In this document: positions 6,977 to 49,524 of the stretch, piece by piece | Layout: every line of letters starts with the position of its first letter | How positions within the stretch are numbered: the stretch's first letter is position 1 | Position numbers and translations under genes: made by a program | Assembly (NCBI GenBank): GCA_951406725.2 | Contig: OX597826.1 | Span: 67,828,001 to 67,892,000, forward strand | DNA: 64,000 nucleotides | Direction of reading: 5' to 3' | From: Octopus vulgaris | Taxonomy: Eukaryota | The notes under the pieces: model-generated | Seen by the model: only the letters and a program-made list of their open reading frames with translations | Told to the model about the DNA's origin: nothing | Databases searched by the model: none

Positions 6977-8436
6977 CTCTCTCTCTCTCTCTCTCTCATA
7001 TATATATATATATACACTCACACACATATAGATGTAAGCATACTGGTGTGCACATATTCATACATATCACTAACACTTAACTGCATACTTGACATGAAGC
7101 TGGATATGAGCGTGAGCGGAGGAAGCTTGCTTGCCTGTGTACGTACAATGCACTCTGCAATGAACTTCTGTCATGTGACGTTTTGATGCTTATTACGTAA
7201 TAGGCATTATGTATAATGATTATTTCCTCTTGTGTTCTCTCGTAGGTGTACGCGTCAGCAATTGGACATGCGTATTCGCTCACTTCTGCTTTCGTGCATG
7301 TCTGTTAATGTGTTAATGATTAGAGCAGGTGCATAGGGGTGTATGCGGAATATATGCAGCAGTTAATAGGCACTTGAGTATTTGAGTGTATAATTAATTA
7401 TATTAGCCTATGCAATTAGGAATTTTCCATAAAATACCTGCTTCTCTTTGCATATATGTGTGCATGTAACCATACATACTACATACACACATATATGCAC
7501 ATAGCTGCACACAAGTATATCCATATATATATATATATATATATATATATATATATATATGCGTGTGTATGTGCATGTATGTATATATTTAAGGATAGAT
7601 ACATATTCGCACATACACACGCTCCCGACATATGTGCACACACACTCAACATCGCACTCTCATACACAGCTACAATTATATATATATATATACACACACA
7701 ACACAACACTCACTCACATCCACAGATACACAGACACATACAGACACACACACACACACATATATATATACACACACACACACACACATATACACATACA
7801 CACACATATATATATATATATATATATATCGCCTTCTCCTTCGAAACGTAGAGTAGATGAAACCATTGGCGACTGAAGAAGGGGCTTTTTCCTTGTGTTA
7901 TTTGTCCTGTACTCTTTTTTTTTTAAAGGAAAATGTCCAGTTCCTTGGGTTTGTGTCTATGTTTTCGTTTCTCATTGTGTTCGACGTTATTTTTGGTGTC
8001 CTGTACTCATATATGCGTGTATATATACATGTAGAGGTAGGTACGTACATATATGTTTATATATATGCATATATTTTATTTATTAATATATTACATATAT
8101 ATATATATATATATATATATATATATATATATACCAACACGACACACGCAAGTGTTCTACGCGCAACGTAGGTGCTATACTTATATATATTCCTCCTCAT
8201 CCCTTCTGGGAAACTTCGAACTTGAATTTGATTATTCTAATTTTAATAGATATATGTCGATTAGCGCGTTGAAGTGTTGAGTAAAGCACTGGCACAGTTT
8301 GGACTACGTGGCTTCATCGGCAGTCGGTGTATATTTTCATTGGATCTACTTAAAAAATTCCGCAGTCTTAGTTGAGATAATAATTACTATTATTACTTAA
8401 ATAACGAGAATATGTATTTAGTATTAATCTTTATTT

Positions 8437-8535
8437 TGTACAGGGGTCGTTTCGGTTCTTCCTGCTACTACCCATTATAGATGGAACTAATTTTATGTGT
8501 GAACCAATTTTGCAATCTGGGCCTCATCAGGTACA
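8437..8535 (-). ncRNA. Degenerate hammerhead-like motif, inverted relative to the downstream PLE
   Basis: Minus strand TGTAC-CTGATGA-gg...cc-GAAAC-gacccct-GTACA; stem III and cleavage triplet damaged. Confidence 0.4.
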
Positions 8536-8989
8536 CCTATACATAAAATATCTCGCTAAAGATGCTGAGTTTTGACTGTCATATAGTTATAAGCCCGTTT
8601 GGTTAAGGAATGGATCATCGCTACAATTTTCAGTTACTACTATCTTTTGTCAATAAGCGTTGCACACAATTGTAAATATGGCAAATAACTGCTGATTTGA
8701 AAGAAAAGTTCGTAGGGGAGGTTAATAGATGGACTGGAAGGGACTGAGTTACACTGGGTTTAAGACAAGGATAGTACTTGAAGAAGGAAGATATATATAT
8801 ATATATATATATATATATATATATATATATATATATATATATATATATATATATATATATATATATATATATATACAGCTTGTACTATCTAGTTGGAGAA
8901 ATGTTGTTTAGCTAGCTAGCTAACTTATATCTGGATTCGTATGCATACATATACACAATTTCGCTCGCGCATGCACTCTTACAGAGGAG

Positions 8990-45387: not shown

Positions 45388-45862
45388 ATATATATATATA
45401 TATATATATATATATATGTATATATATGTATATGTATATATATATATATGTATATATATATATATATGTATATGTATATATATATATATATGTATTTATA
45501 TATATGTATATATATATATATGTATATGTATATGTATGTGTATATATATATATGTATATGTATATATATATGTATATGTGTATATATATATATATGTATA
45601 TATATATATATATATATATGTATATATATATAATATATATATGTATATATATATATATATATATGTATATATGTATATATGTATATATATATATATATGT
45701 ATATATGTATATATGTATATGTATATATATATGTATGTGTATATGTATATATATGTATGTGTATATGTATATATATATGTGTATATATATATATATATAT
45801 GTATATATATATATATGTATATGTATATGTATATATATAAATATATATATGTGAGTGTGTGT
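45388..45862. repeat. Compound (TA)n/(TATG)n array
   Basis: Direct read. Confidence 0.97.
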
Positions 45863-47480
45863 GCTCATGTGTCTGCCAACTTTGTCATGGCATACTTGGA
45901 AGTCTAAATATACGAGCACGCTAGACTGAAATTTGGAAACAACTTACAAAAATACTCACCAACTGGAAACGCTACCTGGATGACTGTTTCATAACAGTCA
46001 CATAAACATGAACAATTCTCAAAATTTAAATTCTTAATCAACAGTAATAACCAGAATAACCATTTGCTACCCAAAACATTCTAAAATAAATACACCGTTC
46101 ACCTTCCGAAGCCCGAGAAAAGCGACTCAAAGAATTTTAAAATACATTACTAGATAGAAAATACCTGACCAGTCTAATAAAAAATGGAATAGAACGCGCC
46201 AAATTGCCCACCAAAAATACAATCCCACATGTCAGAACGTGCAACTGACCTAACTGTGGAACTTGCATCTTCTTCTTAGAGGGCCCAACATACAAATTTC
46301 AGTCAGGTCAAAAGTTTACCATAAAATATGACTTCACCTATGCTTCGAAGAACTTAATCTATGTTCTCAAATGTGGAGGTTGTAGCGGTGACTACATTGG
46401 TCAAACTAGCTTAACTTTGAGTGATAGACTTACGGTACACAGGCAACAAATCCGGGACCCCACCACTAGGAAAATTCCCGTAAGCAAGCACCTAGACCAA
46501 TGCCCCGCAGACACAAACACTAAATTTCAAATCTTCCTTTCTATCAATGCTCTGGAAACACTTCAACCCAAATCCGTTTAAATAAGGAAAGCATACTGAT
46601 TAAAAAATATAAACCACAACTGAATATCGTTTAGAAAGAAGAAAAAGCAGTAAAAAGAATAGAAAAAAGATTCAATTCCAATACAAAACAACAAGGGAGA
46701 ACAAAAAAATTGTTTTGAAATCTTTAGTAACAATCTTCCACCCGGTTTCCGAAACCGCGACTCCAAATCATCACACAAACACCAGTTGACGACGTCACCT
46801 ACTTCTAGTCCAATGAAATTCTACAAACACCAGACCAATTAAAACCCAACTTCAACAAATACAACGAAATGACCCTTTAAAGAACCAACGAACCAGAACG
46901 ACTTATGACCGTCTCCACAGGGAAACCAACCAAACATAACGACAAGCTTGACCACGGAACAAAAAGCGTCACCAGTATTTTAACGAATCAAAAATTAGAT
47001 CTGCTCGCGTAAAAAAATATAAATACATCTGGTCCCACTACAAATAAAAGCGTCTACTAGAAGAGGATCAAAGAAACTGTAAACTAAATACCTTTTTTTA
47101 ATATTTTCATTTCACCCTTGTTTTTTTCAGTATGACTTGCCGACCACCACTAATTTTAATGAACTTTGTACTTTCAAACAAATTGATATTCAGTTTTAAT
47201 ATTATTGACTACTATGAACATTCAAACTTACACCTGTCCTCCAAATTCACAATGCTAAATTTATCTGTTTTGAACATGTTAATTTATCAATATCGAAACA
47301 TTTAAAGATGTTTTTCTAATTCATAGTTTTAAACTTTTACTATTGATAAACAAACATGTTTTTCTAATTCATAACTTTACACTTTTACCATTGATAAACA
47401 AAAAATATTGTTGAAACTAGTTTGGTATATATGTAAATAAATGTATTTTAAAAATTTACGGGTTTTTAAATTTAGGTGTA
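45863..47480 (+). mobile_element. Penelope-like element relic (RT + GIY-YIG + 3' region with degenerate HHR at 47386-47427)
   Basis: [58 protein letters not shown]-tTGATaA-acaa..ttgtt-GAAAC-ta-GTT-TGGTA. Confidence 0.88.
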
Positions 47481-49524
47481 TTTTCAACAACGTATTTTCA
47501 TATATATATATATATATAGTATACATAATATAAATAAAAAATATATATATATGCATATATACATATATACATGTGTTCGCTACATTACTTCTTCTGGACT
47601 AATGGCCCTGCATGTTTGTTTTCGTTTGGTTAGTTATATGTCTCTACTGTCAGGTTTTTCTTACCAACTTTGACCCTCTACAAATCCCGAATTTTATTTT
47701 GGTTCGCGGGAGCAACTGTTTTTCGAAACCTTATTTGGACGTCAATTGCTCCAAATGTGGTGTAGATGAACGACCGACAATTGATGAAGGGTCGCTCTTT
47801 ATGTTACTTGTCTCGTTTTCTATTTGCTTCTCTCATTGTTCGCATACCCAAATGTGCCTTCGTATTTCATGTTGTTTACGTCTCATGACGTCCTATACAC
47901 ATATATGCATATATGCATATATATATATATATATATATATATATATATATATATATATATATATACACACATAGGTATGTACATATATGTATATATGCAT
48001 ATATATATGTTTTGTGTCTGTCTTTGTTCCCCCCTCTCTTGACAACTGATGCTGGTGTGTTTAACTAGTGGTTCTGCAAAATTGACCGATAAAATAAGTA
48101 CCAGCCTTTCAAAGAAGTCCTGGAACCCCAGCACGGCCACAGTCAAATGACCGAGACAAGTAAAAGAGTAAGCAGGTCGTTATACCAGAGAGATACGCTG
48201 ATATATCCAGCCTTGGCGTGAGACAAGAAAATAAATACCTCCACCAACGTCTGCACGATATGTATTTGAAGTCCGAGTGAAACGTATATTATTGGTATCA
48301 TATATCTGTAATGTGGCTAGTGTGTAATGGCCGCAAGTAAACGACCATTGACTACTTAGTCTCCTAACCGACCAGACCAGCTGAGACAAGACATTCGCAA
48401 CGTGATTTCAAAGAATCAAAAGAACTGATCGCATCTCATTATCAAAGTTAGCTTCTGGCGAAACATATTTAAGTGGAAATAAATCTGAAGCATCTGAACT
48501 TTCATTGTATAAAAAATTCAGATTGGTCTGGGTGCATATAAGAAAGACAATATATATATATATATTTATAGATTTGTTTTTCATGTAATCTATGTGAGTT
48601 TACTTCTGCGTATACATGTGTATATGTGTGTGTGTGTAAATGTCTTTGTATACTTGTGGAGGTCATGTGCGAACTTTATTCCTTACAGTAATATCAATTC
48701 TATTATTGGATGTTGTAAAAGATTTGGATAAACCTCTGTTTCGTGAAAAAGAAAGTGAAAGAAAAGAAGACAAAAAACCGGCAGATAAAAAAACACGAAA
48801 AGAAAAAAAACAAATTTGAAAAATAAATGTTTATCGATAGAAAAAGTCTGCACCAGCCGAATGTTTACCATAATTTCATAATTCAATTGACAATTCTTTG
48901 GTAAATAACAGAAACATACAAACTTACAAATATGACAAGGGAAATAATGTGTGTGTGTATGTATGTATTTACGCACCTACATATATCTGTTTTTCTTCGT
49001 GTATATATATATTTTTTTTTCTTTTCCAATGTGCATTTTCACTTATTTTTCTTATTTACCCCTTACATTTCCACGTGTAGTTTCTATTTTCTTTTTGTAA
49101 CTATATATATATATATATATATATATATATATATATAGTAGTATGTATATAAATTTCTGTGTGCGTGTATTTGCATTTGCGTTTGTCCAACCCACCATTA
49201 CTTGACAACCGATGTTTGTGTGTTTATGTCCGCGAAACACAGCGGTTCAGCTTAGGAGAACGATGGAATAAGTATTATACTTACAAATAATAAATTCAGT
49301 GTCGATTTCTCTTCGACCAGAGGCGGTGACCCGGCACGGCCGTAATCAAACGACTTAAACTTGTAAAAGAGAATATGTATATATATATATATATATATAT
49401 AGTAGGTAGATAGATAGATAGATAGATAGATAGATAGATAGATAGATAGATAGATAAATGGATAGATAGAGAGAAACAACATACTGCTTTGCACGCACGA
49501 ATATTTTTTAATGCCAATAATTAC

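Follow-up and report, generated by a model that had tools for sequence, protein, structure and literature searches.

What are the three hammerhead-like motifs dispersed over a 64,000-nucleotide (nt) stretch of the Octopus vulgaris genome (contig OX597826.1, positions 67,828,001 to 67,892,000, forward strand; the whole stretch is called the window here)? A reading made from the sequence alone took each of them for a half-hammerhead, with CUGANGA between two helices but without GAAA or stem III, and suggested an undescribed, non-catalytic relic of a hammerhead ribozyme, perhaps a recognition element for reverse transcriptase (RT) or a kink-turn. Each of the three strings was confirmed letter for letter on the plus strand, at 7868–7906, 12068–12104, and 47776–47812. 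They also adjoin (TA)n tracts, which lie at ~40 nt or less from copies 1 and 2 and ~90 nt 3′ of copy 3. The motifs are not half-hammerheads; one is a decayed copy of a repeat and two are 5′-truncated copies. We hold with considerable confidence that they are broken copies of a high-copy, noncoding Penelope-like repeat whose split hammerhead likely cuts its own RNA.

The source genome (2.8 Gb, 227 contigs) is rich in AT and microsatellites. The window motifs belong to high-copy repeats, with 2570 and 528 genomic candidates at a first look, and are not chance matches. Two families, A and B, are 66% alike over ~300 nt. Copy 1 is a member of family B (young subfamily B1; 94 to 97% identity to its best 40 genomic matches), while copies 2 and 3 are family A members 81% alike. 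The A/B units are ~820 nt long and noncoding, with a tandem spacing of 811 to 848 nt and no RT-like or endonuclease open reading frame (ORF) seen in them. Their copies are inserted into (TA)n and truncated at the 5′ end, and they occur in partial head-to-tail tandems and as inverted 5′ copies. Since these hallmarks match the list given in PMC8557442, we regard A/B as non-autonomous Penelope-like elements, in keeping with the earlier suggestion of a retroelement part.

The 3′ part of the ~820-nt repeat holds all hammerhead core nucleotides and is predicted to adopt a non-circular fold whose strand is opened between A9 and G10.1. Hammerhead positions and the kink-turn pattern used below follow the standard numbering and consensus. 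The order of strands begins with the 5′ strand of an extra helix, Pa, the Pb hairpin, the 5′ strand of stem II, and the 5′ strand of a stem I-II interaction helix, and continues with block S (stem III 3′ strand, U, H, and stem I 5′ strand). A short linker leads to block G (stem II 3′ strand, GAAA, and stem III 5′ strand), which is followed by the 3′ strand of the interaction helix, block C (stem I 3′ strand and CUGANGA), and the 3′ strand of Pa. The stem II 5′ strand is thus detached from A9 and located ~25 nt 5′ of the cleavage site. The Pb hairpin lies 5′ of it and, further 5′, the Pa strand pairs with the bases just after A9; the strand 3′ of it pairs immediately 5′ of stem I and so forms the interaction helix. 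Together, Pa and Pb would keep A9 beside G10.1.

In the fuller copies of family B, TACGT-C stands directly 5′ of TCGCC. TACGT pairs as stem III with the ACGTA that follows GAAA, and TCGCC pairs as stem I with the GGCGA that precedes CUGAAGA; in sister subfamilies, both sides of stem I and of stem III change in concert. Stem II is formed by GAAGG with CCTTC in family B, by GAGCAA with TTGCTC in family A, by GACACC with GGTGTC in the octopus Naiad family, and by GGCTGG with TCAGCC in family C (the last two are considered below). GAAA, stem III, and UH in the fuller copies bear out the idea that the motif is related to the hammerhead. Their position upstream of CUGANGA, in a non-circular order, was unexpected, and the view of a non-catalytic remnant that lacks them does not hold for the family. 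The sequence-only reading had named a restored GAAA and stem III, or a lack of covariation, as grounds for its own refutation; the family copies restore both parts, and the two helices it proposed do not covary.

Genome-wide, a pattern with GAAA 16 to 34 nt 5′ of CUGANGA gave 10,458 matches, compared to 59 in the reversed control, and these matches are spread over many sequence classes. We aligned 53 copies using MAFFT (52 of the 55 chosen among 108 long copies, together with copy 3 of the window). Across six helices, 92.9% of cells are paired, compared to 41 to 47% in slid controls. Two-sided changes occur in 18 of 27 pairs and amount to 208 cells versus 81.5 in shuffled alignments (a level reached in 0 of 500 shuffles). 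Compensatory pairs number 4 of 5 in stem I, 3 of 5 in stem II formed with the upstream strand, and 4 of 5 in stem III, with 90 to 97% pairing. The interaction helix is 85% paired, with two-sided changes in all five of its pairs. The core positions C3-U4-G5-A6-N7-G8-A9, G12-A13-A14, and A15.1-U16.1 are each intact in 51 to 53 of the 53 copies, and H17 is A in 28, C in 17, U in 8, and never G. The pattern by which the copies were selected included GAAA and CUGANGA but neither U16.1 nor H17.

A descriptor search was run over 372 overlapping loci (945 kb) that were enriched by design. It returned 167 S-G-C cores, of which 140 have the upstream stem II, 109 show the full form (75 distinct), and 4 have a contiguous stem II; 127 of the 140 carry the interaction helix. 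Control sequences (three Markov sets and the reversed loci) yielded one core at most and never the full form. We have little doubt that the split-core architecture is real. An Rfam scan of the window contained no hammerhead among the 150 of 281 matches listed, which are microRNA or small nucleolar RNA matches driven by microsatellites and below the gathering score. The output of a repeat search of the window was dominated by simple repeats.

The descriptor also found a family that had not been used in building the model. This family C (2188 exact 30-mer hits) is a separate noncoding tandem family of ~720- to 810-nt units (L373 to L402), exemplified by a five-unit array at G000:C1:79499421-79502343, and combines the split ribozyme with a canonical kink-turn pattern; two of its copies, in locus L024, begin ~11 nt past the predicted cut. 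The strict kink-turn pattern, in which a 3-nt bulge is followed by tandem G·A and A·G beside a canonical stem, was placed at the end of stem III toward the I-II interaction helix and is found in 8 of 10 Naiad-family copies, 4 of 4 family C copies, and the single copy of the L246 family, compared to 2 of 101 copies of other classes, nearly all of the A/B superfamily. At the same position, families A and B have a purine-rich loop offset by 2 to 3 nt. A kink-turn at the CUGANGA loop itself gained no support; the scripted pattern test covered the region from stem III to the interaction helix, not this loop. Loci L246, L178, and L278 hold further, sequence-distinct versions of the ribozyme with the block order unchanged.

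The same layout is found in Naiads, Penelope-like elements for which Craig et al. (2021; PMC8557442) reported no canonical hammerhead even with relaxed descriptors, suggesting that ribozymes may merely parasitize Penelope-like elements. Eight Naiads, including Naiad_Ovul, are marked “HHR_half_core” in that work. Naiad_Ovul carries the split layout, and 156 exact matches to its motif occur in the source genome. There, Naiad RT remnants are followed 1.4 to 1.7 kb downstream by the Naiad-family ribozyme at 5 of the 30 top-ranking loci as well as at L272. We assessed by eye 19 of the 54 Naiads in the supplement of Craig et al., some named by file order. The split form was seen in nine (Naiad_Ovul, Obim, three from Acropora, Bfor, Plae, one from an arthropod, and Esco, whose stem II is imperfect), and their hosts include a coral, a comb jelly, an acanthocephalan, and an arthropod. 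Seven nematode Naiads have a contiguous type-CSG order, so that the motif was seen in 16 of the 54 published Naiads overall. For the comb-jelly Naiad, the prediction of Pa partly held: the helix has 10 bp, but its junction shows two U-U oppositions in place of the predicted A-U.

A Naiad ORF (N-terminal GIY-YIG, CxC motif, and C-terminal RT) was not found in the A/B units or joined to them, and for this reason A and B are not filed as Naiads, although the ribozyme layout is common to both. The A/B ribozyme type would be the one that Naiads were reported to lack. We think it likely that an active natural hammerhead, opened at A9/G10.1, closed by two extra helices, and outside the six permutations assumed to be possible, has been overlooked in a large share of the Naiads of at least five animal phyla (with type CSG in nematodes) and in thousands of non-autonomous octopus repeats, and that it cuts their RNA in vivo.

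The halves seen in the window are explained by the state of its copies, since copy 1 starts 1 to 2 bases past the predicted cut, copy 2 starts ~33 nt past it, and copy 3, though whole, carries mutations at G12 and C3. Copy 1 (7829–8094, plus strand, 3′ end approximate) is 5′-truncated at +1/+2 in a (TA)n tract and reaches the AT-rich 3′ end. Its stem I 5′ strand TCGCC (7829–7833), the first bases 3′ of the predicted cleavage site, pairs with 7868–7872, although T7829 may belong to the TA tract. Block G at 7838–7850 comprises the stem II 3′ strand CCTTC, G12-A13-A14, and the stem III 5′ strand ACGTA, whose partners are gone through truncation, as is the partner of the interaction-helix 3′ strand GAAAC (7859–7863). 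The stem I 3′ strand, the CUGAAGA core (7873–7879), and the Pa 3′ strand (7880–7884) make up 7868–7884. The absence of GAAA and stem III reported earlier is thus incorrect for copy 1, where GAAA and the stem III 5′ strand remain at 7843–7850, and for copy 3, which has the whole layout with G12 mutated. It does apply to copy 2 (12059–12236, plus strand, ends approximate), whose truncation at ~+33 removed GAAA and stem III; the interaction-helix 3′ strand, the stem I 3′ strand, CUGAUGA (12073–12079), the Pa 3′ strand, and the tail are retained.

Copy 3 (47591–47900, plus strand, ends approximate) begins ~140 nt 5′ of the cut and has the complete, though decayed, ribozyme layout at 47672–47793. 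Its upstream part (47672–47721) consists of the Pa 5′ strand (47672–47677), the Pb hairpin (47678–47709), the detached stem II 5′ strand GAGCAA (47710–47715), and the interaction-helix 5′ strand (47716–47721). The core part (47729–47793) includes the stem III 3′ strand, U16.1 (47734), H17 (47735), a mutated stem I 5′ strand, block G, the CUGANGA core (47781–47787), and the Pa 3′ strand (47788–47793). With C at G12 (47752) and U at C3 (47781), the ribozyme of copy 3 is predicted to be inactive. Two candidates considered around this region were dropped. A type II reading with GAAG/GAAA near 47725 leaves stem III unpaired in most copies. A 3′ splice acceptor 5′ of the ribozyme is not conserved (GCAG versus GCGG), and it was set aside because its bases covary in helix Pb.

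To see where copies end, 93 of them were anchored on a 30-mer located 3′ of the ribozyme (3 of 96 were dropped as assigned to the wrong reference). On the 3′ side of the predicted cut, 15 copies begin at +1 to +12, 4 at +13 to +24, 7 at +25 to +54, 6 at +55 to +90, and 6 at +91 to +134. On the 5′ side, none of 55 copies ends at −30 to −1, 5 end at −100 to −31, and 50 end further 5′. The 15 ends at +1 to +12, out of 70 copies at risk, compare to 1.5 expected from the background rate (Poisson probability, 6e-11). A second sample of 93 copies, with 18 ends at +3 to +12, none at −2 to +2, and 2 at −30 to −3, is not independent of the first, having at least five pile-up copies in common with it and including four near-identical duplicates. 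Stalling on structure explains the pile-up poorly because RT would have unzipped the core helices already by +12; run-off at a cleaved 5′ end, we infer, explains it well. The pile-up suggests cleavage in vivo and, judged with the conserved core, the repeat RNA quite probably cleaves itself.

The alternative folds differ in what they make of the strand after A9. The ribozyme could be an ordinary type SGC, with a short G-rich strand after A9 serving as stem II and the upstream strand acting as an anti-ribozyme switch that blocks the cut until it is removed. In its favor, three Gs after A9 in families A and B can form pairs, in 98.7% of cells, with the strand that precedes GAAA; Penelope ribozymes commonly have one more base between A9 and G10.1 (PMC4209133); and most copies (55 of 70) run through the site uncut. 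This pairing is, however, mostly G-U and shows compensatory change in 0 of 3 pairs, and at least four Watson-Crick pairs after A9 are present in 4 of the 167 cores compared to 140 that have the upstream strand; a contiguous stem II was rejected on these grounds. In addition, the strand after A9 in the coral, comb-jelly, and acanthocephalan Naiads, as judged by eye, is unable to pair there and pairs as Pa. We consider the switch improbable. Still less credible is the stand-alone, non-catalytic loop closed by two local helices that the sequence-only reading proposed. That the two helices persist stood in part: they pair in 87 to 94% of cells and are part of the predicted structure of lowest energy in each of the three window copies and in the 3′ cleavage product. 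Their pairs are mostly G-U, however, and two-sided changes in 1 to 2 of 9 pairs (2 to 3 cells) equal those in shuffles, whereas covariation links the 3′ strand of stem I to the upstream strand (4 of 5 pairs) and not to the downstream one. With GAAA and stem III upstream in the fuller copies, this loop is contradicted as the family's main fold. The hairpin may be real as a fold of the 3′ cleavage product; in copy 1, its downstream strands (7885–7906) would form part of an alternative structure of the RNA when truncated or cleaved, one for which no covariation is seen.

A different objection accepts the fold and doubts the catalysis, making the structure a protein-binding or RT-stop element, or a monomer that cleaves only with protein or in trans. 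No tested natural hammerhead with helices at A9/G10.1 was found in the literature searched, activity can suffer from a single base inserted at this junction (PMC3705267), cleavage by the anole Penelope ribozyme required added protein (PMC11167929), and the 5′ ends of copies are not precisely at +1. Against this stand the core nucleotides and an H17 that is never G, kept across unrelated families, and a pile-up that sits where the enzyme has already unzipped the core helices, with a sharp stop at the predicted cut. We judge this alternative unlikely, and the split, self-cleaving hammerhead remains the preferred reading.

Several observations weigh against that reading. The 5′ ends peak at +3 to +12 and not exactly at +1 (1 of 15 in the first sample and none in the second), and microhomology in (TA)n, uncorrected in the counts, could have shifted the junctions. 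The descriptor matches none of the three window copies, nor did the window as a whole give a match. The numbers of covarying cells overstate the number of events because related copies share changes, and the changes in stem II mostly reflect the split between families A and B. Within the A/B alignment, Pa has two-sided changes in 0 of 4 pairs; its covariation comes from other families only and was partly read by eye. In the interaction helix, columns 79-141 form a pair in just 30 of 53 copies, for which gap placement is the probable cause. The consensus sequences of Omin, Adux, and Naiad-1_Skow, read whole by eye, showed no motif. No A/B copy joined to an RT ORF was seen, a search that is incomplete because one ORF list was not scanned against Pfam. 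Last, the anole Penelope element inserts in vitro without need for ribozyme cleavage (PMC11167929).

Among known systems, the octopus form is closest to the type-SGC ribozymes (HRIMA-1 and variants) of Eckert et al. (2023; PMC10085705), with which it shares the core, the S-G-CUGANGA order, a short stem I-II linker, and the interaction helix. That paper named the non-circular S-G-C permutation, drew its examples from metatranscriptome, metagenome, and RefSeq searches, and assumed that block C cannot be interrupted; the word “octopus” does not occur in its text or supplement. In type SGC, the stem II 5′ strand directly follows CUGANGA, whereas in the octopus form it lies ~75 nt upstream, with Pa and Pb at A9/G10.1. 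Blocks S, G, and C follow in this order with a short S-G linker, and the cyclic order C-G-S of types I to III is absent. Since block C is interrupted, instead of having the stem II strand 1 to 2 nt from A9, we do not file the ribozyme as type SGC. Its mode of working would be like that of hammerheads of the C-S-G cyclic class. Type CSG, known from two tested sequences in the same paper, has this cyclic order and the interaction helix but is opened between G and C, while the opening of the octopus form falls within block C.

Naiads (PMC8557442) resemble A/B in that they target (TA)n, are truncated at the 5′ end, form partial tandems and inverted 5′ copies, and have an optional tail. Unlike Naiad loci, A and B form ~820-nt units, with no sequence similarity between the two beyond nested A/B insertions and simple repeats. 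Non–long terminal repeat (LTR) retrozymes and Penelope minimal type I ribozymes (Cervera and de la Pena 2014, PMC4209133; Li et al. 2026, 10.64898/2026.07.22.740005) likewise involve non-autonomous tandem units that carry a ribozyme and are linked to Penelope-like elements, for which cleavage, circularization, and more-than-unit reverse transcription have been proposed. Their ribozymes are type I, with a circular order and a short palindromic stem III, and act as dimers, whereas stem III of the non-circular octopus form is 5 to 7 bp. Li et al. searched with type I models alone, and the published precedent found for an A9/G10.1 insertion is a single extra base (PMC3705267, PMC4209133). We found no description of the split wiring or of permuted ribozymes in Naiads, in a literature search whose coverage left subscription papers and bioRxiv supplements largely outside; to this extent the form is undescribed, as had been supposed.

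The most likely life cycle can be outlined. A tandem or read-through transcript would be cut at each ribozyme to yield unit-length RNA. At a nicked (TA)n site, a Penelope-type enzyme acting in trans would start complementary DNA (cDNA) ~190 to 270 nt downstream of the cut and run off the cleaved 5′ end, giving short cut-to-tail copies such as copy 1. Uncleaved or circular templates would give longer and more-than-unit copies, and the 3′ product is predicted to refold after cleavage into the hairpin of the sequence-only reading. For a circular template, we would put the chances slightly short of even. Internal cDNA initiation has been demonstrated for the anole Penelope element (PMC11167929), and cleavage, ligation, and more-than-unit copying were proposed in PMC4209133. 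Most of the unit is covered by contigs from four runs presumed to be RNA, from which ends, strand, and level are not readable; one run is covered deeply across the ribozyme bins, but this does not count as evidence. In A and B units (L039 and L060), a splice donor–like GTAAG followed by a long pyrimidine-rich tract lies ~530 nt 5′ of the cut and might be the 5′ untranslated region intron typical of Penelope-like elements.

Which enzyme mobilizes A and B? A Naiad is the most likely candidate, with about an even chance. The role could also belong to a young Neptune-type element (RT, CxxCxxC linker, and C-terminal GIY-YIG) or a HERO element, a tentative alternative to which we give somewhat less than even odds. 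An intact Neptune-type family, represented by L263 (2294–4552, minus strand) and L264 to L268, has a frame of 753 amino acids that matches RVT_1 and, weakly, GIY-YIG; another ORF lies upstream, and there are a pLTR and an optional tail. Its copies are 98.5% identical and end in (TA)n; the family is as young as B1 and possibly still active. Cephalopod Naiads, according to Craig et al. (PMC8557442), were inactivated long ago, and it counts against a Naiad helper that B1, with 97% pairwise identity, is far younger than the sampled Naiad copies (83%). On the other hand, the 3′ end of the Neptune-type element is unrelated and lacks the split ribozyme, and the A/B copies found next to it were inserted into TA tracts independently; with 150 of 2725 RT candidates scored, a younger Naiad could be missed. 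The 3′ end of the L263 to L268 elements contains a short hammerhead-like string. In the window, decayed remnants of Neptune-type Penelope ORFs (RT end and CxxC linker) lie on the plus strand at 9200–10600 and 45870–46630, with a weak GIY-YIG match (E = 0.014) at 46249–46578, and resemble the intact young family found elsewhere in the genome. As parents of the adjacent copies, such remnants were ruled out, being independent TA insertions.

If true, a conserved permuted ribozyme in Naiads would reverse the reading that ribozymes only parasitize Penelope-like elements. Non-circular RNA permutation would extend from environmental RNAs to animal genomes, at high copy number, and the assumption of an uninterruptible CUGANGA block would fall. 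Ribozyme searches with standard descriptors would overlook the split class. The 5′-end pile-up would be a genomic record that makes the in vivo role of Penelope ribozymes testable, and the open A9/G10.1 junction would offer a new insertion point for RNA engineering.

The window contains other repeats. A repeat resembling a short interspersed nuclear element is located at 1860–2420 and 50314–50536; it forms a 184-nt three-copy tandem and has an inverted copy 48 kb away. Positions 51838–51900 and 52454–52516 are a direct duplication ~616 nt apart that contains a CTGAAGAAGG string unrelated to A/B. At 63800–64000, another short repeat begins, with a GAAAC motif at its end and similar ones in the flanks of L014, L048, and L054; it may represent a minimal type I hammerhead from a different Penelope family.

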